From the NCBI GenBank assembly GCA_963821965.1, contig CAWGFY010000007.1, positions 210,887-274,886 of the forward strand: a DNA stretch of 64,000 nucleotides, in the 5' to 3' direction. This document shows positions 6,128 to 16,092 of the stretch, in pieces. The notes beneath the pieces were generated by a model. It did no database searches, had not been told where the DNA came from, and saw only the letters and a program-made list of their open reading frames with translations. This DNA comes from an uncultured Alphaproteobacteria bacterium (GTDB lineage Bacteria > Pseudomonadota > Alphaproteobacteria > Rhizobiales > Xanthobacteraceae). Within the stretch, counting starts at the first letter, position 1, and every line of letters begins with the position of its first letter. A program made the translations under genes and the position numbers.

Positions 6128-7238
6128 TCAGTTCTTCAGGTTGATCATCCGCTCGACCGAACGCCGCGCCTTGTCCGCGATCATCGGGTCGACCGTGACT
6201 TCCTCGCGCAGATAGACCAGGCTGTCCAAAATCTTCGGCAGCGTGATCCGCTTCATGTGCGGACAGAGATTGCACGGGCGCACCATCTCGACGTCGGGCA
6301 GCTCGGCCTGCACGTTGTCGGCCATCGAGCATTCGGTGATCATCACGACGCGCTTGCTCTGGTTCTTGCGCACCCAGTTGATCATGTGCGCGGTCGAGCC
6401 GGTGAAATCGGCTTCCGCCAGCACGTCGGGCGGGCATTCCGGATGCGCGATGATCTGCACCGACGGATCGGCTTCGCGATACGCGCGCAGTTCGTCGCCG
6501 GTGAAGCGCTCATGCACCTCGCAGGCGCCCTTCCAGGCGATGATCTTCACATCCGGTCTTCGACGCCACGTATTTCGCCAGATACTGATCGGGCAGGAAG
6601 ATCACGGTCGGCGCATTCAGGCTCTCGACCACAGCGACCGCATTCGACGAGGTGCAGCAGATGTCGACCTCCGCCTTCACGTCCGCGGATGTGTTGACAT
6701 AGGCGACCACGGGCACGCCCGGAAAACGTTCGCGCAACAGCCGCACGTCGTCGCCGGTGATGCTGGAAGCCAGCGAGCAGCCGGCGCGCGAATCCGGGAT
6801 CAGCACGGTCTTGTGCGGATTGAGGATCTTCGATGTCTCCGCCATGAAGTGCACGCCGCATTGAACGATCGTGCTTTGCTTCACCTTGGTCGCCTCGATG
6901 GCGAGCTGCAGCGAGTCGCCGACGATGTCGGCGACGCAATGGAAGATTTCCGGCGTCTGGTAATTGTGCGCGAGGATCACGGCGTCGCGCGTGGCCTTCA
7001 GTTCGTTGATGGCCTTGATGTAGGGCGCCATGAACGGCCATTCGACCGGCGTGATGACGTTCTTGACGCGCTCGTAGAGATGCGCGGTGTCGCGCTCGAC
7101 CTCGGGCGTCCATTCCAGCGAGGGCATCGGAACCGCGCGGCCGCGCTCGGCCGGGCTGATGGGGCGACGCATAGCCGCCGGATAGGCGCGGCCGGACCTT
7201 GCGAAATCATCGGGACCGTAGATTCCAGCGATCGGCAT
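6128..7238 (-). CDS. nadA: Quinolinate synthase (apparent 1-nt frameshift near 6553)
   Basis: [27 protein letters not shown] in 6510..7238; GACEVHE, AHPEC, CPHMK in 6128..6550. Confidence 0.93.
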
Positions 7239-10021: not shown

Positions 10022-10618
10022 ATGCTTGCGCGTTTGGTTTTGGGGACCGTGACGGCCGGGGCGATCATTACACCGGCACTGGCGGGGATGATGTCGGCAG
10101 AAGAAGCGCGCAGGTTCGTCGCCGGCAAGGTGTTCGCCTTCACCTGCTTCGACGGCACCCGCGGCGCGGGCCGTATTCTCGACGACATGGGCGCGGCCGG
10201 CGCGGTGCAGTTCTCCGGCTCCGGCCCGATCAAACGCATCCGCCTTCCCGGCAATACGCTTCATATCCGCGGTCAGGCGGTCTGCGCCTCGCTGCGCGGC
10301 TTGCCGTTCGAGCCCTGCTTCAATCTCGACAAGAAGGACGATCGCAGTTTCCGCGGCTCCGTGTCGGGCATGGGCTTTGCCTATTGCGATTTCCATCATC
10401 AAGGCGGCGGCCAACAGATGCTGATGGCGCGCGCTGTGGCGCGGCCACGGGCGCTGCACCGCTCCGAAGTGACCGGCTCGACCGATACTCCGCACAACGA
10501 GGTCACCGCGCGGGTCGAGACACCCGCGGTCGAAAGCAACAAGATCGAGCCGGTGAAATCCGAACCGGCGCCGGCAAGGACCGAGAGCGCGCCGGAGCTT
10601 CGCCACTCGACCGAGTGA
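10022..10618 (+). CDS. Hypothetical secreted protein (Cys-containing N-domain, Pro/Glu-rich tail)
   Basis: Signal-peptide-like N-terminus, GGAG RBS, host-like codon usage. Confidence 0.75.
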   Translation: MLARLVLGTVTAGAIITPALAGMMSAEEARRFVAGKVFAFTCFDGTRGAGRILDDMGAAGAVQFSGSGPIKRIRLPGNTLHIRGQAVCASLRGLPFEPCFNLDKKDDRSFRGSVSGMGFAYCDFHHQGGGQQMLMARAVARPRALHRSEVTGSTDTPHNEVTARVETPAVESNKIEPVKSEPAPARTESAPELRHSTE

Positions 10619-10670
10619 CGGAATCACGCGTGATCTCCCCAACGCATCTTTGGGGACGCGCAAAGGTTGC

Positions 10671-10713
10671 TTGTGAAGGGCACCTTCAGTAGCTAAAATT
10701 GCGGTTGAAGGTG
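10671..10713 (+). promoter_or_regulatory. Putative sigma70 promoter with operator-like repeats for the exosortase cassette
   Basis: TTGTGA-N17-TAAAAT (10671-10699); palindrome TGAAGG-GCA-CCTTCA (10674-10688) and a third half-site TGAAGGTG (10706-10713). Confidence 0.5.
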
Positions 10714-10724
10714 GGTCTATCGTC

Positions 10725-10922
10725 ATGACGTTGGTTGGTTCGAGGATTGTAGTCGCAGGCTTAGGCTTGGCATCGGTGCTTCTGCTCGGCATCGAGCCGA
10801 GCTGGGCGGGATTTCCCGTTCCGGCGCCCCTCGTTGGCGTGACCGGGCCGGTTGGGATTGTAGCCGCAGGACTCGCTTATGGCGGCTATTTGCTGTTCAA
10901 GCGCTATCGCAATCGCGGCTAG
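10725..10922 (+). CDS. 65-aa signal peptide + PEP-CTERM-like sorting-signal micro-protein
   Basis: Hydrophobic signal ending PSWA, then GFP-VPAP, TM helix LVGVTGPVGIVAAGLAYGGYLLF and basic tail KRYRNRG; GAAGGTGG RBS-like sequence upstream. Confidence 0.8.
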   Translation: MTLVGSRIVVAGLGLASVLLLGIEPSWAGFPVPAPLVGVTGPVGIVAAGLAYGGYLLFKRYRNRG

Positions 10923-10970
10923 CAGCGGTGCCGGCCCGTGAGCCGGCCAAACTTTTGATCGGGGGGATCA

Positions 10971-11840
10971 CTGCTGAGCGAGATCTCCGCCAGAATTGCA
11001 TCGCCGTCAACGGACGTCGCCACGCCGATTGGCCGCCGCGAATTGCTGCTCTGGATCGTGGTGTGTCTGTTTGCCAATCAGGCGTTGCTGCTGCTGGACG
11101 TCCAGTCGTTCGACGCCTTTGCCGCAAGCCTGTTGACCCAGAACGACATTTACTGGCTGGCCTGTGCAGTCGCAATCTATCGGCTGTATGTCAGCGACCA
11201 GGCGGTTCGCGCCAGTCGTCTCGATTGTGCGCTGGCGCTGGCGCTCGGTACTTGCATCCTGCTGAGCAGCCTTCTGCCGTACCGCTTCGGGATCGGCCTG
11301 CTCGCAACCGTGGTCGCCCTTTATCTCCTGCTGCTCGATCATGGCGATCGAAACCTGAAAGCGGCAGGCGGTGTGCTGCTTGCGGTCTCGACGCAACTGG
11401 TCTGGGGACCGATCCTGTTTCAGCTCTTCACGCCGGAATTGCTGAAAGCCGATGCGACGCTGGTCGGAACGACGCTGCTACAATTCCGGCCGGACATCGT
11501 CTGGAGCGGCACCAACTTTTTTGCGCCCGACGGTCATGCCGTTTCGCTCATTGCCGGATGCTCGTCGTTCAACAATGTCTCCAGCGCCGTGCTTGCTTGC
11601 GTGGCGGTCGCCATGTGGCGGCGCAACGAGTGGGTCCGCCAGGACATCGCAACCATCCTCATCGCGAGCTTCGCGATGATCCTGGTCAACACCGCGCGCA
11701 TCTGCCTGTTTGCCTGGAGCGACGACTATCGCCTCTATTGGCATGACGGCGCCGGCGCGCAGATCCTGGCTATCGCGCAGACAGTCGTCGTTCTCGCGAT
11801 CGCGTGGTGGGGTGCTGCGCCGTCGAAGCGAGTGCCATGA
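10971..11840 (+). CDS. Exosortase/archaeosortase-family membrane transpeptidase
   Basis: Multi-TM protein with the Cys-Arg-His triad in family context (LIAGCSS, LVNTARI, YWHDG); frame is open from 10959, CTG at 10971 follows GGGGGA (alternative start TTG 11043). Confidence 0.8.
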   Translation: MLSEISARIASPSTDVATPIGRRELLLWIVVCLFANQALLLLDVQSFDAFAASLLTQNDIYWLACAVAIYRLYVSDQAVRASRLDCALALALGTCILLSSLLPYRFGIGLLATVVALYLLLLDHGDRNLKAAGGVLLAVSTQLVWGPILFQLFTPELLKADATLVGTTLLQFRPDIVWSGTNFFAPDGHAVSLIAGCSSFNNVSSAVLACVAVAMWRRNEWVRQDIATILIASFAMILVNTARICLFAWSDDYRLYWHDGAGAQILAIAQTVVVLAIAWWGAAPSKRVP

Positions 11841-12388
11841 GCAAAGCCGCCGTTCGAGGCATCGCGGCCCTCGTATTGCTGCTCACGGTGGCGGTCCGAT
11901 TTCAAGCCGACCTGGCACGCCGGACGATGATGACGGAGTTCGATGCCAGCGCTGCGGTTGCGCAGGTCCTGCGCAACCACGGCCTCGAGTTGCGTGAGAA
12001 TCCGGTCAAGCCGCCGAGGGTGCTTTCCGTCGTCGTCTATTTCCAGCGCCCCGAATGCGACCGCGTCTCGCTGGTGCTGCCCTACTTCATCAATGCCGAG
12101 GCCGAGCCGCTGCTTGCACGCGTCACCGAGCCAGGCTTCGATCGCCATTTCTATTACATGGACTCGTCCTGGCAGGAGCAGCATCGCGTGTCGATGTTCC
12201 TCGCATGGGCAAAGTATGCGGTGCTCGATCTCCTGGGCGCCTCGCCCTATGTGCCCGTGAAGAAGGCGATCGTTGTTGCTGATCCGCCGGACTGCAATCC
12301 GTCGGTTGCCATCGACTGGCGACCGTTGTGGGAGAAGAAGCAAATTCCCGGCCCGGTGAATGCGGGTAGCAGCGCCGCCCGTAGTTGA
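11837..12388 (+). CDS. Exosortase-associated membrane-anchored protein (EpsI-like position)
   Basis: ATGA overlap with the exosortase stop; N-terminal TM followed by a soluble domain with 2 Cys. Confidence 0.7.
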   Translation: MSKAAVRGIAALVLLLTVAVRFQADLARRTMMTEFDASAAVAQVLRNHGLELRENPVKPPRVLSVVVYFQRPECDRVSLVLPYFINAEAEPLLARVTEPGFDRHFYYMDSSWQEQHRVSMFLAWAKYAVLDLLGASPYVPVKKAIVVADPPDCNPSVAIDWRPLWEKKQIPGPVNAGSSAARS

Positions 12389-12391
12389 TCG

Positions 12392-15079
12392 TCAGGAAGT
12401 TGGCGTGGCCACCGGCGTCGCCTGTCGCCGGAACAGGATGCGCTGGTATAGCCAGCCGATTGCGACCAGCACCAACCCCAGACAGATGAACGATAGCGCG
12501 CGGTAGACGCCCGTCAGGGTCGACATATCGACCAGGAAGGCTTTGGCGATCGTCAGTGCGATCACCGCAGCCGAGGCGAACCGCGCGCGCTGCGAATTGA
12601 CGACGATTCCGACACCAAGCAGCGCTACGCCGAAGGCGAGCCAGGCAATTGAATATGAGTATTGCTCTGCACCGGTGGTTGGACCGTAGATGATGTTCGG
12701 TCCGTGATAGAGTCTGCGGATTTCCAGCCAGATGTAGCTGAGCGCGAAGATCAACGCGCCGGCGGCAATTGTGTTGGCGTAGCGCACGCTGCGCTGCGCG
12801 GCCACGGCATAGGAGAGCAGCAGCATCAGCACGGAAGGCAGCAGATAGGCGAGCAGCAGCAGGTTGATGAAGCTGCCCTCGAGTCTGACACTGGACAACA
12901 TCGGGTTCTCGAGCACCAGCAATCCGAAAATGCCGATGAGTCCGGCAAGCACCGTGATCAGCAGCGCGCCGACATTATGCACGATGCTGCCGGTGCGCAG
13001 ACGCAAGCGCTCCAGCCCGATCGCCATCGCAAGCATGACGCAGGCTTCCAGCGCGAACTCCGCAAGCGAGGGAACGACGTGCGTGATGTCGCCGCCGTAG
13101 ACGGCGTGACGGATTTCCATGAAGGCGAGCAGCACCGTGAACAGGATCGCGGCCAATTCCACGGTGCGCAGCGGAGCGTCGTCGGCGCGCTGGCGCAGGA
13201 AATAGCTGCCGGTCCAGAACGACAGCGCGGGAATGCCGTAACCCCACAACAGCCAGTTGAAGATCGGCGTGGCGCCGATCGCGTCACCCGCGATGCGCGG
13301 CTCATAGCCGATCCGCAACACCACGATGCCGGCAAGCACCGCCGCAAGCGTGCGCAGGAACGGGATCGGCCGCTGCAGTGAAATCCAGGCCGTGCCGGCT
13401 GACATCAGCGCGAGCGCGATGGTGAGCCAGCCTTTCTCCAGCGCAAATGTCAGCGCCAGCGCCAGCGCGCCGAGCGCGCCGGTCGCGAACAGGGCGGTCG
13501 CAATCGCGACGCCGGGCCGGCTGTCGCGCCGGGCAAGGCTTTCGGTGGCTGCGCCGAAGGCGGCAGCGAGAATGACGGCGAGAATCGCAAAGGGGATCGA
13601 GCGATCAAGATGCGCGATGCGCGCGTAGAGCGCAATCAACAATGCGAGCGGCACGAACACCGCTGTCGCCGCCCAGGTCACGGTGATCCTGGCGGCACCG
13701 AAGCGGCCCTGCGCGAGGAAGCCGGCGACGCCGAATGCGACCGCGAAGATCGCCGCGGTGGTCATGTGCAACGATACCGATCCGTCCGTTGCCGATGGTC
13801 CGATCCCCGGCAAGGCTCCACCCGGCACCACAAGCATGTCGGGATTGCCGCGCACCGCCCATTCGGCGAACACGATGAAAATAAACGCCGCGGCCGCGCC
13901 GAGCGCACCGCTTGCTGCCGGCGCCCGCCACGCCACGAACATTGTGCCGGCGACCAGCACGGCGAAGGTAATCAGCGCCGAATCCGCATGGCCGCTCATC
14001 AGCACGATCAGCATCGCGCCGAACAGATAGGCGGCAAGCGAGGTGGACGAGATCGGCTCGACCTGATCGGGCCCGATCTCGGGACCGAACGCGAAGCCGC
14101 ACACCACCAGCAGGCTTGCGAGGATGAGGCCCGTGACGACGTGGAAGGCGTGTGGAGCGACCATCGAGGGGCCGCAGTCCAGGCAGGGCAGGGTCCAGAG
14201 CAACGCAAACACGATCGTCGTGATCGCCAGCCAGCGCCACAGGCGGATGCGCGCGAGCGCCAGCGCTGCAGCGGTGACGATTGCGAGATAGACATAGAGC
14301 GCCCAGTAATCGGGTTGCTCCGAAGACACCAATAGCGGCGTGACAAAGCCGGCGGCGACGCCGAGCCCGGCCAGTGCCGGTCCATGTAGTAGCGCAGCGG
14401 CGAGCGTGCCCAGCGCGACCATGCCGAGCAGGATGAAGGCGGTGGCGGGCGCGATGAAGCCATAGAGCGCGTAGGCGGCGTAGACGGTGGCAAAGGCCAC
14501 CGCGGTGCCGGCCGCGGTCAGGATTGCCGGGATATTGGCGATCGGGAGCGCGACGATGTCGGAGATGCTTTCCTTGCGCCGTGTCCATTCACCGGCGGCA
14601 AGCAGCGCAAGTGCAAACAGGCCGCCGAGCGCGACTCGCACGCGCGGACCGAGTAGACCCGCCTCGATCGAGTAGCGCACCATGAAGAAACCGCCGAGCG
14701 CGAGCGTGAGCCCGCCGATCCAGACCACCCAGCGGGTGCCGATCCGTTCCTCGAAGCCGGGCTCGGCTGGCGACAAGGGCGGCGGCGCAGCGCCGGCCGC
14801 AGGCTCGGCCTCCGCGGCCTCAGGCGTGGCGACCGTTGGAGGCGGTTCGACCGCGGCCGGTGCAGATGGCGGAGCTTGTTCGAATTGCAGTAGCGGCGGC
14901 GGGGCCGACTGCGTCGACGCCGTGACTCTTGTTGCCTCCAGTCTATCGAGACGCGCGCGCAGATCCTCGACACGTTGATAAGCCTTGCGTGCGAAGATGA
15001 TCGCGGCGATCGCGAGCACCAGCGAAATGAAGATGATCGCCAGCACCTGCGTAATCGGGTCGAACGGCAAATCGAACAT
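12392..15079 (-). CDS. DUF2339-family large membrane protein
   Basis: FEERIGTRWVVWIGG, many TM helices, C-terminal K-FL-D...R-LSFI-LG-L-IGW-Y. Confidence 0.88.
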   Translation of the reverse strand: MFDLPFDPITQVLAIIFISLVLAIAAIIFARKAYQRVEDLRARLDRLEATRVTASTQSAPPPLLQFEQAPPSAPAAVEPPPTVATPEAAEAEPAAGAAPPPLSPAEPGFEERIGTRWVVWIGGLTLALGGFFMVRYSIEAGLLGPRVRVALGGLFALALLAAGEWTRRKESISDIVALPIANIPAILTAAGTAVAFATVYAAYALYGFIAPATAFILLGMVALGTLAAALLHGPALAGLGVAAGFVTPLLVSSEQPDYWALYVYLAIVTAAALALARIRLWRWLAITTIVFALLWTLPCLDCGPSMVAPHAFHVVTGLILASLLVVCGFAFGPEIGPDQVEPISSTSLAAYLFGAMLIVLMSGHADSALITFAVLVAGTMFVAWRAPAASGALGAAAAFIFIVFAEWAVRGNPDMLVVPGGALPGIGPSATDGSVSLHMTTAAIFAVAFGVAGFLAQGRFGAARITVTWAATAVFVPLALLIALYARIAHLDRSIPFAILAVILAAAFGAATESLARRDSRPGVAIATALFATGALGALALALTFALEKGWLTIALALMSAGTAWISLQRPIPFLRTLAAVLAGIVVLRIGYEPRIAGDAIGATPIFNWLLWGYGIPALSFWTGSYFLRQRADDAPLRTVELAAILFTVLLAFMEIRHAVYGGDITHVVPSLAEFALEACVMLAMAIGLERLRLRTGSIVHNVGALLITVLAGLIGIFGLLVLENPMLSSVRLEGSFINLLLLAYLLPSVLMLLLSYAVAAQRSVRYANTIAAGALIFALSYIWLEIRRLYHGPNIIYGPTTGAEQYSYSIAWLAFGVALLGVGIVVNSQRARFASAAVIALTIAKAFLVDMSTLTGVYRALSFICLGLVLVAIGWLYQRILFRRQATPVATPTS

Positions 15080-15111: not shown

Positions 15112-16092
15112 TCAGCGCCGGCCGCGAACGCGCAGGCCCGGTGCCGGACGCTCCTGCAACACCTCGCGGCGGAAACGAAACAGCGCGGCGGGACGTCCGC
15201 CGGTCTGTGTCGACATCACGCCGGTCGGTTCAACCAGGGTGCCGGCTTCGACCAGCCTGCGGAAATTCTGTTTGTGCAGGTGACGCCCCGAGATCGCCTC
15301 GACGGTCCGCTGCAATTCAGTGAGTGTGAACTCCGGGGGCAAAAGTTCAAATACGACGGGGCGATATTTCAGTTTTGCGCGCAATCGGGCAATCGCGGTC
15401 GCGAGGATGCGCCGGTGATCGAAGCGCATTGAGACGCCAAGCGAAGGAAGCGACCTGCGCGCCAATGCCGCAGGCCGTCCATCGCGGCGAGCTTCCTCGA
15501 CCAGTCCCGCTTCGTACAGCAGCTCGTAGCGGTCGAGCACGCGCTCCTCGTCCCAATGGGCGCCCTCGGTGCCGAAATTGAGCCGCACGCGATCTTTGCG
15601 CGGCAGCGCCCGCGCCGTTTCCGGCGCCTCGCCCTGTTCGGCCCATTTGGTCAGTTCGGGAAGGATGTCGTGCTCGATGATCTCGGGCCGCGCTTCGCGC
15701 CAGTCCTCCCATGGGAAGAAGCGGTACCAGGGCTCGAAGGTCGCGCCGGGCGCGCGCGATGCATTGTTGTCGGCGGCGCGCGTCAGCGCGAGATAGCCGA
15801 TGGAGGCGACGTGCATCTCGGTGTCGCCGGCTTGCGTGTGCCGGCCACGGTCGCCGAATGTATACAGCTGCTCGACATAGCCGAGCCGCAGTCCGGTCTG
15901 CTCCTCCACCCAGGCGCGCAGGCCGATCTCGAAGGTGCGGTGCGAGACCGCATCGAACGGGCCGAACGGAAGGCCGTCGAGCTTGTCGCCACCGGTGCCC
16001 GACGCGGTGAGGATCAAGGGCTCGTTGCCCTCGATCGCGACGATGGCCGCCGTGAGGCCGATCTCGATCGGCGTCAGAAGGTTGTCGCTCAT
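15112..16092 (-). CDS. nadQ: NrtR-family NAD regulator NadQ (degenerate Nudix + wHTH)
   Basis: YVEQLYTFGDRGR, FDHRRILATA, FTLTELQRTVEAI, HKQNFRR, GGRPAALFRF; cognate box is present upstream of nadABC. Confidence 0.88.
   Translation of the reverse strand: MSDNLLTPIEIGLTAAIVAIEGNEPLILTASGTGGDKLDGLPFGPFDAVSHRTFEIGLRAWVEEQTGLRLGYVEQLYTFGDRGRHTQAGDTEMHVASIGYLALTRAADNNASRAPGATFEPWYRFFPWEDWREARPEIIEHDILPELTKWAEQGEAPETARALPRKDRVRLNFGTEGAHWDEERVLDRYELLYEAGLVEEARRDGRPAALARRSLPSLGVSMRFDHRRILATAIARLRAKLKYRPVVFELLPPEFTLTELQRTVEAISGRHLHKQNFRRLVEAGTLVEPTGVMSTQTGGRPAALFRFRREVLQERPAPGLRVRGRR

Follow-up and report, generated by a model that had tools for sequence, protein, structure and literature searches.

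The window, a 64,000-nucleotide stretch of an uncultured alphaproteobacterium of the Xanthobacteraceae (contig CAWGFY010000007.1, positions 210,887 to 274,886), contains an exosortase cassette of three same-strand genes, which encode a 65-aa micro-peptide precursor, a divergent exosortase and a partner protein, and which are flanked upstream by a conserved gene of 198 aa and downstream by a DUF2339 gene in convergent orientation. A fourth gene, for a fatty-acid-hydroxylase-family protein, is co-inherited with the other three; in most related loci it directly follows the partner gene, and in the genome that holds the window (G000; a 4.0-Mb assembly, 60% complete) it lies at a second locus. The gene order is conserved across the loci compared, as are the genes themselves; the exosortase and the hydroxylase are members of recognized families, and the sorting tail of the micro-peptide is found on tiny proteins only. 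From these comparisons the four genes appear to work like a dedicated exosortase system with its own substrate, partner and hydroxylase. We tentatively propose, giving it slightly less than an even chance, that the system joins a short Gly/Pro-rich peptide to an amine lipid that is tailored by the co-inherited hydroxylase.

The exosortase, its substrate and its partner

The exosortase lies in an open frame that spans 10959 to 11840 and contains the motifs AGCSS, NTARI and WHDG. Its start codon is not ATG; it is a CTG at either 10971 or 10974, and the latter is more likely, because two relatives have TTG at that position and the spacing to a G-rich ribosome site is better. The protein, about 288 aa long, matches PF09721 over residues 57-280 (44.6 bits; gathering cut-off, 25.7) and scores 22.7 bits with the signature model TIGR04178 (cut-off, 23), which is matched by 93 of 118 exosortase homologues at E<=0.01. 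In an alignment of these homologues there is no variation at Cys197, Asn240 or Arg243, and His258 and Gly262 are at least 90% conserved; the triad aligns with C163, N205/R208 and H229/G233 of 20 canonical XrtA/XrtD-type proteins. Profile comparison also connects the group with the canonical type (probability 86.4, E 4.7e-6), and its motif is Cys-Ser-Ser in place of Cys-x-Gly. No named NCBIfam exosortase subfamily reached its cut-off with the window protein, for which the best match was CrtA (25.3 versus 150 bits), and the 118 homologues gave weak matches only (best E 1.4e-12, to CrtA; one match each to the XrtD and XrtH models), whereas true XrtA proteins score 231-334 bits in the same library. 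Judged by sequence, the window enzyme is a member of the exosortase/archaeosortase superfamily and belongs to no named subfamily tested.

Searching 1.84 billion representatives with a profile returned 840 relatives at E<=0.001. The exosortase tree, a quick version with Shimodaira-Hasegawa-like approximate likelihood ratio (SH-aLRT) support only that took in 22 of 150 listed representatives, contains a close clade of 20 (SH-aLRT 99) and separates the whole group from XrtA/XrtD (SH-aLRT 100). The structure model (predicted local distance difference test score, pLDDT, 94.8) has eight long, mostly hydrophobic predicted helices; comparison with solved structures gave generic helical bundles only (best Z 9.6, root-mean-square deviation (rmsd) 2.5, 85 aligned), with no exosortase structure among the matches listed. 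Each of five clade genomes has a single PF09721 match, and G033 has an additional distant member of the exosortase group that the PF09721 search missed.

The presumed substrate runs from a hydrophobic N-terminus ending in EPSWA through GFP and VPAP to a hydrophobic stretch and a KRYRNRG tail. It was compared across a clade set of 50 loci, the number left after removal of same-genome duplicate loci and of L057 (a duplicate of L017); counts skip loci with too little flank, and L080-L082, which look like chimeric fragments, were kept as misses. A homologue lies upstream of the exosortase in 31 of the 33 loci with at least 400 bp upstream, the other two being L068 and the chimeric-looking L081, and tandem copies with differing cargo occur in 3 of the 50. 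L068 and L074 are early-branching or divergent members of the clade. Across 38 distinct peptides the signal peptide varies freely, apart from Ala28 (position -1), which is invariant in the 30 aligned. It is separated from PAP by 3-5 residues, mostly small and hydrophobic and variable after the first, which is Gly in 35 of the 38. Next are the conserved PAPL-x-GVTGP motif, a Gly-rich helix that ends in YGGY, and a basic tail. The ribosome site ahead of the peptide genes is conserved, and in the 27-codon C-terminal block of the 38 distinct genes the proportion of synonymous differences (pS, 0.57, uncorrected) exceeds that of nonsynonymous differences (pN, 0.14), from which the genes appear to be under purifying selection; they were picked by motif, making the motif part of this comparison partly circular, and tblastn recovered the same set. 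Codon bias gives the peptide no backing, as its codon-usage score is near zero (1.6, versus 74 for the exosortase). No NCBIfam or Pfam sorting-signal model reached its cut-off on 24 clade peptides (PID-CTERM, best 17.9 bits, cut-off 26).

A genome has one or two open reading frames (ORFs) with this tail, every one of them tiny; this holds for G000 and for five further clade genomes, of which three are 99-100% complete. No large tail-bearing substrate was found in the 60% complete G000 by tblastn, a generic tail scan or a tail hidden Markov model (HMM), and no large protein with the sorting tail was found in the five others. Cleavage of so small a precursor could plausibly leave a product of 3-7 residues; depending on the cut site, the N-terminal product may be 4-13 residues long.

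The partner gene follows the exosortase in 41 of 43 clade loci, and in the window the two overlap at ATGA (11837-11840). The protein has two invariant Cys and belongs to a family shared with the partners of distant cassettes (probability 97.6, E 3.4e-12). It matched no Pfam or NCBIfam family, TIGR02914 was unmatched by 63 partners, and against 17 C-terminal domains of XrtA/XrtD fusions, presumed to be EpsI, hhalign probabilities were 0.2-0.9 (control, 97.6). Its predicted fold had no Foldseek match; the best VIA match (Z 4.5, rmsd 2.8, 74 aligned, KA1-like) is at background level and would mark neither a new nor a known fold, and an Atlas search with the partner homologue P0229 gave no usable match. 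A predicted exosortase-partner complex scored 0.52 (best control, 0.01), with runs agreeing in at least 81% of contacts and a partner pLDDT of at least 75. The mark set for the complex score is reached by 116 of 157 solved pairs and 2 of 215 mismatched pairs, and because scores of 0.60 or under include only 18 of the 157 but both of the mismatched ones, the prediction lends weak support. An exosortase-partner fusion of 462 aa, P0304, is represented by one sequence only, on a contig of 86.7 kb, and may have arisen artificially through a frameshift between the overlapping genes. We consider it likely that the partner is a subunit of the exosortase.

These results agree with most of the first-pass annotation of this stretch. 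The promoter, the 65-aa gene, the exosortase and the overlapping partner are where it had placed them, and its assignment of the enzyme to the exosortases is borne out by PF09721 and the alignment of the triad. The subfamily models place the enzyme outside the named subfamilies tested, the locus counts show the small gene and the partner to be conserved to either side, and the nearly cargo-less dedicated substrate that the annotation described is in line with the genome scan. Its sorting signal stands as a tripartite layout, with the correction that the conserved motif extends beyond VPAP and that the residues preceding it vary. The enzyme group, the sorting signal and the partner family are uncurated in the libraries searched.

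The hydroxylase and the history of the module

A hydroxylase gene directly follows the partner gene in 27 of the 32 clade loci whose flank extends for 200 bp or more; the remaining five are L001, L002, L004, L060 and L074. The second-locus hydroxylase of G000 matches PF04116 at 106 bits (cut-off, 31), and all 21 clade hydroxylases in the tree have the His boxes HxxxH, HxxHH and HxxHH. The nearest NCBIfam model is that of OlsE (NF052566), an identity that was rejected (78.4 bits, cut-off 475). Among 401 genomes of the genus, with at most 6 candidates scored per genome, a close exosortase (E<=1.4e-90) is found in eight and a close hydroxylase (at least 52% identity) in exactly the same eight; the next hydroxylase matches, in 14 further genomes, have 33-39% identity, and the clade hydroxylase was not found in the other 393 genomes searched.

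The first-pass annotation had described the cassette as self-contained; this fails, since the co-inherited hydroxylase belongs to the unit and is encoded here at a second locus. G000, G109 and G163 lack the gene at the cassette and have a peptide gene plus a hydroxylase gene at a second site common to all three, downstream of a flavin monooxygenase-like gene. G029, G033, G105, G220, G318 and G1092 keep the cassette hydroxylase, and no second clade hydroxylase was found in them; each of the nine cassette-bearing genomes has exactly one, in the cassette or beside the second peptide. In the tree the second-site hydroxylases form their own branch among the cassette copies, indicating a paralogue or xenologue rather than a relocated local gene, and the junctions left at the lost hydroxylase differ between G000/G109, G163 and L060, suggesting more than one loss. 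The flank-gene tree needs two changes to account for the split arrangement; the split genomes form one group in 2% of bootstrap trees, and no well-supported branch forces two changes. The simplest history would start from two cassettes: loss of the hydroxylase from one, and of exosortase and partner from the other, would leave a single copy of each enzyme. At the second site of G000 (C5:867986-869090; L101:3987-5091) a short palindromic intergenic repeat lies between the peptide gene and the hydroxylase gene, and downstream of the pair are a 649-aa protein without a family and an acyltransferase.

No exosortase-hydroxylase fusion was found among 11 longer homologues in the clade, which is weak evidence, and one long sequence (P0389) is an apparent chimera with a sugar transferase. 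The trio was also looked for in XrtE systems, in 3 genomes only, with no match. The closest long relatives of the hydroxylase (P0390-P0395; 35-40% identity) are mostly fused to rhodanese domains, and in two loci a small DUF6894 gene follows the hydroxylase (L063:6341-6625 and L182:10467-10748).

The description of the cassette as an inserted module is supported by the flanks. The upstream flanking gene is present in 29 of 30 genus genomes without this exosortase, and in 7 of 29 such genomes, selected for the absence of the window-type exosortase, it lies 41-550 bp from DUF2339. The same four-gene order occurs at other chromosomal sites: in L059 it follows zapA, in L071 a LamB/YcsF gene. Recent horizontal acquisition was rejected, the guanine-cytosine fraction of the cassette (0.61-0.63) being within the range of the first 30 kb (0.60-0.71), and the cassette had no match in the plasmids or viral contigs searched. 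From its distribution the module is old and patchy, and it has changed position at least a few times.

No receptor, kinase, regulator, exporter or immunity gene is a conserved neighbour of the cassette, and the variable residues of the peptide are small and mostly hydrophobic; the suggestion of a signalling system accordingly finds no backing. Chemoreceptor-like or HAMP genes do adjoin the cassette in three loci (L063, L183 and L075). Two orphan small APAP-tail proteins occur in G1234 (on C562 and C462; L256 and L260), in which no exosortase was found (92% complete, 680 contigs). A literature search of titles and abstract openings returned no description of this cassette; a mention in fuller subfamily surveys or supplements is possible.

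Proposed mechanism and competing explanations

In the proposed mechanism, the exosortase and its partner would cut the exported micro-peptide at or just after the PAP motif. The precursor would be exported by the Sec system and cleaved by signal peptidase I after Ala28, and the C-terminal helix would hold what remains in the inner membrane, placing PAP on the periplasmic side. Cys197 would then cut, forming a thioester to be resolved by an amine-bearing membrane lipid, as has been proposed for archaeosortase A (ArtA), while the di-iron hydroxylase would make or tailor the acceptor lipid, or the amino-acid part of the conjugate, in the way that OlsE acts on ornithine lipid. This would yield, in the cell envelope of an alphaproteobacterial lineage from soil, a lipid-linked peptide that is ribosomally encoded and about 4-13 residues long. 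It is the presence of the hydroxylase in the unit that tilts the odds toward a lipid linkage. As reported for ArtA, Cys173, Arg214 and Arg253 are required (PMC9263693), and cleavage depends on PssA/PssD, with an amine lipid put forward by those authors as the nucleophile and lipid genes adjoining artA in Methanosarcina (PMC7157517). OlsE, a member of the same hydroxylase superfamily, is described as hydroxylating the ornithine headgroup of ornithine lipid (PMC12971839).

A broader claim, that the cassette represents a new biosynthetic logic in which the exosortase is a peptide-lipid ligase existing for a 4-13 residue Gly/Pro product, either lipid-joined or cyclised/oligomerised through its N-terminal Gly and then tailored by the hydroxylase, strikes us as rather doubtful; if it held, the products would be an unrecognised class of amino-acid membrane lipids derived from a gene-encoded peptide.

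Several observations weigh against the lipid-linked product. On the biochemical side, the ArtA cut site is left unresolved in PMC6098224 and one-step transpeptidation by ArtA is treated as unproven in Haft 2023 (bioRxiv 10.1101/2023.06.07.544157). On the genomic side, the eight genomes that share exosortase and hydroxylase are kin with one shared insertion site, so that their co-occurrence counts as roughly a single event, with a few rearrangements besides. In L074 the partner gene is not followed by a hydroxylase, and none was found within the flanks, roughly 7-8 kb long, of any of 39 distant loci, some of whose flanks end at contig ends; one of the 39 has a hydroxylase about 10 kb away. L068 (523-1359) has an exosortase with no peptide in the 516 bp upstream. 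Conversely, in G1139, a genome of a different genus that is 96% complete in 310 contigs, the peptide (C255:12441-12641, a GMTGP variant) and the hydroxylase (C58:10-738) are present, with no exosortase or partner found; both genes are at contig ends, and an assembly gap may hide the exosortase. The OlsB-like family PF13444, which we take to be linked to ornithine lipid, is present in only one of five clade genomes, making ornithine lipid an unlikely acceptor. Finally, the membrane helix of the peptide is more conserved than a disposable anchor requires.

This last feature is central to an unlikely alternative in which the helix binds and controls the hydroxylase, the exosortase and its periplasmic partner act as a sensor-protease that switches lipid hydroxylation, and the N-terminal piece is waste. 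The helix is indeed highly conserved, as far as the YGGY close to its cytoplasmic end, in contrast to the variable cargo; peptide and hydroxylase remain paired at the second locus, which lacks the exosortase, and G1139 has both, no exosortase having been found there. However, the second locus, which has a similar promoter element, could equally well have arisen if promoter and cassette were duplicated and the two genes in the middle were then lost, and the position of the G1139 genes at contig ends reduces the force of that case. The tail is also similar to the APAP/APGP tails found in distant, hydroxylase-free cassettes, which argues that it is primarily an exosortase signal. If the focus is placed on the cargo instead, the N-terminal Gly could attack the thioester, yielding a cyclic or head-to-tail oligomeric Gly/Pro peptide that would be oxidised by the hydroxylase and released, free of lipid, as a metabolite or matrix component. 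The Gly at +1, followed by variable residues at +2 to +4, and the differing cargos of the tandem copies would fit such a product, as would the several cargos that read G-x-G-x-P, a pattern resembling the elastin repeat. We nevertheless rate it as quite improbable: Gly at +1 may merely suit signal peptidase, distant cassettes begin with other residues, the conserved neighbours include no exporter, receptor or immunity gene, and the substrates named in the sources for the hydroxylase superfamily are lipids, sterols and carotenoids.

The hydroxylase could also be a co-regulated passenger of a plain dedicated exosortase that places a minimal substrate on a common acceptor, such as bulk phospholipid or a surface polysaccharide. 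Most distant relatives do lack a hydroxylase and comprise an exosortase and a partner, to which a small protein with an APGP/APAP tail is often added; some are in polysaccharide loci, and the clade genomes are kin. Against this stands the pattern described above, in which nine of nine cassette genomes retain exactly one clade hydroxylase, at the cassette or the second-peptide site, and the other genus genomes searched yielded none; loss of the cassette copy involved as many as three different junctions, and the three searchable split genomes all retain the second copy. We give this explanation a similarly low probability. Least probable by a wide measure is that the small ORF is not a substrate at all, being an uncleaved two-helix membrane protein or a relic, with the true substrates encoded elsewhere. 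Its near-zero codon-usage score, the incompleteness of G000 (just 60% complete) and the absence of an upstream peptide in L068 would be compatible with this; against it stand the purifying selection, the conserved ribosome site, the Ala at -1, the position beside the enzyme and the lack of any large tail-bearing protein in genomes that are 99-100% complete.

In the sources cited here, the cut site and the acceptor of bacterial exosortases are still open. The natural substrate of this cassette would leave few residues, bringing the product into the mass range of lipidomics, so that a single spectrum could reveal both where the peptide is cut and what it is attached to. With four genes in ~2.5 kb, expressible in a laboratory host, the system would offer a minimal test of what exosortases attach their substrates to, and the hydroxylase would provide a built-in mass tag (+16 or -2 Da) on the acceptor. 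If the product is a peptide-lipid, the cassette would add, in a lineage of soil bacteria, a way of making amino-acid lipids that starts from a gene.

Relation to known systems and layout of the locus

The cassette shares with the exosortase A/EpsH system a homologous multi-helix enzyme with Cys, N-x-x-R and H-x-x-x-G (TIGR03109, TIGR02602; PMC1569441), and, as that system is described, a tripartite Pro-motif/helix/basic signal and a downstream partner, either adjacent or, in occasional cases, fused. It differs from XrtA in its separate, fully supported branch and its C-S-S motif; the window exosortase matched neither TIGR02602 nor TIGR03109. Unlike the EpsH system, with its many large substrates, the window type has one or two tiny ones, a partner dissimilar to the presumed EpsI domains, no polysaccharide locus and a dedicated hydroxylase. 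Among the distant members of the exosortase group, L176, L208 and L212 are located with polysaccharide biosynthesis genes, as canonical exosortases are. Archaeosortase A with PGF-CTERM (PssA, PssD) is of the same superfamily and is likewise reported to be linked to a lipid-metabolism gene (PMC7157517, PMC6098224, PMC9263693); the window system, in contrast, is bacterial, has an almost cargo-less substrate and is linked to a di-iron hydroxylase rather than a headgroup synthase. The co-inherited hydroxylase resembles OlsE (NF052566; PMC12971839) in belonging to the same di-iron fatty-acid hydroxylase superfamily, but it scores far under the cut-off of the OlsE model, and the OlsB-like family is scarce in the clade.

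The targets of XrtJ, XrtE, XrtH and XrtX are small. Like the window cassette, XrtJ (TIGR04199), XrtE/VPEID-CTERM (TIGR04162), XrtH/IPTL-CTERM (TIGR04177) and XrtX/PID-CTERM (NF046080) pair one enzyme with one target on adjacent genes, a design that is already described (Haft 2023 bioRxiv 10.1101/2023.06.07.544157); the window cassette has another motif and another partner. The XrtJ model had no match to the window protein at E<=1 or among the 118 homologues at E<=0.01, and 40 peptides gave no match to an XrtJ target model, which the library searched may lack. The model of XrtE, a type with a fused second protease domain, matched neither the window protein nor the homologues. These models are also much longer than the window enzyme (522 and 516 positions, respectively). 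Background on CrtB and XrtF is available in PMC12188702.

Further counterparts are unnamed alphaproteobacterial cassettes with APGP/APAP tails (L010, L036, L088, L160, L207 and others), which have the same exosortase group, the same partner family and related tails. Their cargos are longer and in many cases contain two Cys or runs of Gly/Asn, and these cassettes lack GVTGP and a hydroxylase neighbour. In L010, L036, L039, L171, L172, L190 and L193 a small substrate has a two-Cys, Asn/Gly-rich cargo ahead of a GAPGP tail, and in L032, L035, L169 and L173 the small gene is downstream of the partner. A separate exosortase branch (L012, L022, L023 and L025, from G033, G081, G078 and G365) comes with an APGPEIG-tail mini-protein with almost no cargo. 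This sub-branch gave no partner match, and no partner or hydroxylase match was found near these four loci; G033 holds both an exosortase of this branch and one of the window type.

The features of the locus are collected in the table. The promoter-like pattern is weak alone (2 found versus 0.7 +/- 0.8 in shuffled sequence); a shape like the window's occurs upstream of 9 of 37 homologous peptide genes, against 0.00045 of random genome windows, a count for which the pattern was picked post hoc from the alignment and the loci are kin. The second-locus peptide gene of G000 is also preceded by a similar element.

Table. Features of the exosortase cassette, its flanks and the second locus of G000 (window coordinates unless a contig is given)
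Feature	Position	Strand	Basis or remark
Upstream flanking gene, about 198 aa, no family	10022..10618	+	Not part of the module; genus-wide
Predicted sigma-70-type promoter (CTTG ... TAAAAT)	10670..10699	+	Pattern scan; recurrence upstream of homologous peptide genes
Micro-peptide precursor gene, 65 aa	10725..10922	+	ORF list, conservation, pS versus pN
Predicted Sec signal peptide, residues 1-28, ending S-W-A	10725..10808	+	Hydropathy, Ala28 conservation
Minimal cargo, G-F-P-V	10809..10820	+	Peptide alignment; four automatic cleavage miscalls hand-corrected
Tripartite sorting signal, unnamed: PAPL-x-GVTGP, Gly-rich membrane helix to YGGY, basic tail	10821..10919	+	
Divergent exosortase, unnamed subfamily	10974 (or 10971)..11840	+	PF09721, triad alignment, structure model
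Exosortase Cys197	11559-11561	+	Residue number counted from 10971
Exosortase Arg243	11697-11699	+	Residue number counted from 10971
Exosortase His258	11742-11744	+	Residue number counted from 10971
Partner protein, 183 aa	11837..12388	+	One N-terminal hydrophobic helix plus alpha/beta domain
3-bp gap where relatives have the fatty-acid hydroxylase gene	12389..12391		
Downstream flanking DUF2339 membrane protein gene	12392..15079	-	Not part of the module
Second peptide gene of G000, outside the window	C5:867986-868207		Directly before the hydroxylase gene
Hydroxylase gene of G000, outside the window	C5:868302-869090		PF04116

Two alternative frames, 10928-11746 (+) and 11735-12343 (-), were rejected for their negative coding scores. 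Elsewhere in the window, at 6128-7238 (-), one gene, which we take to be the quinolinate synthase gene nadA, is split across two overlapping frames, probably by an assembly indel; similar frameshifts, probably of the same origin, break genes in L003, L005 and L006. The gene at 15112-16092 (-) probably encodes an NrtR-type regulator near nad genes, judging from its counterpart in L180, which lies beside DUF2339 and matches NrtR_WHD.

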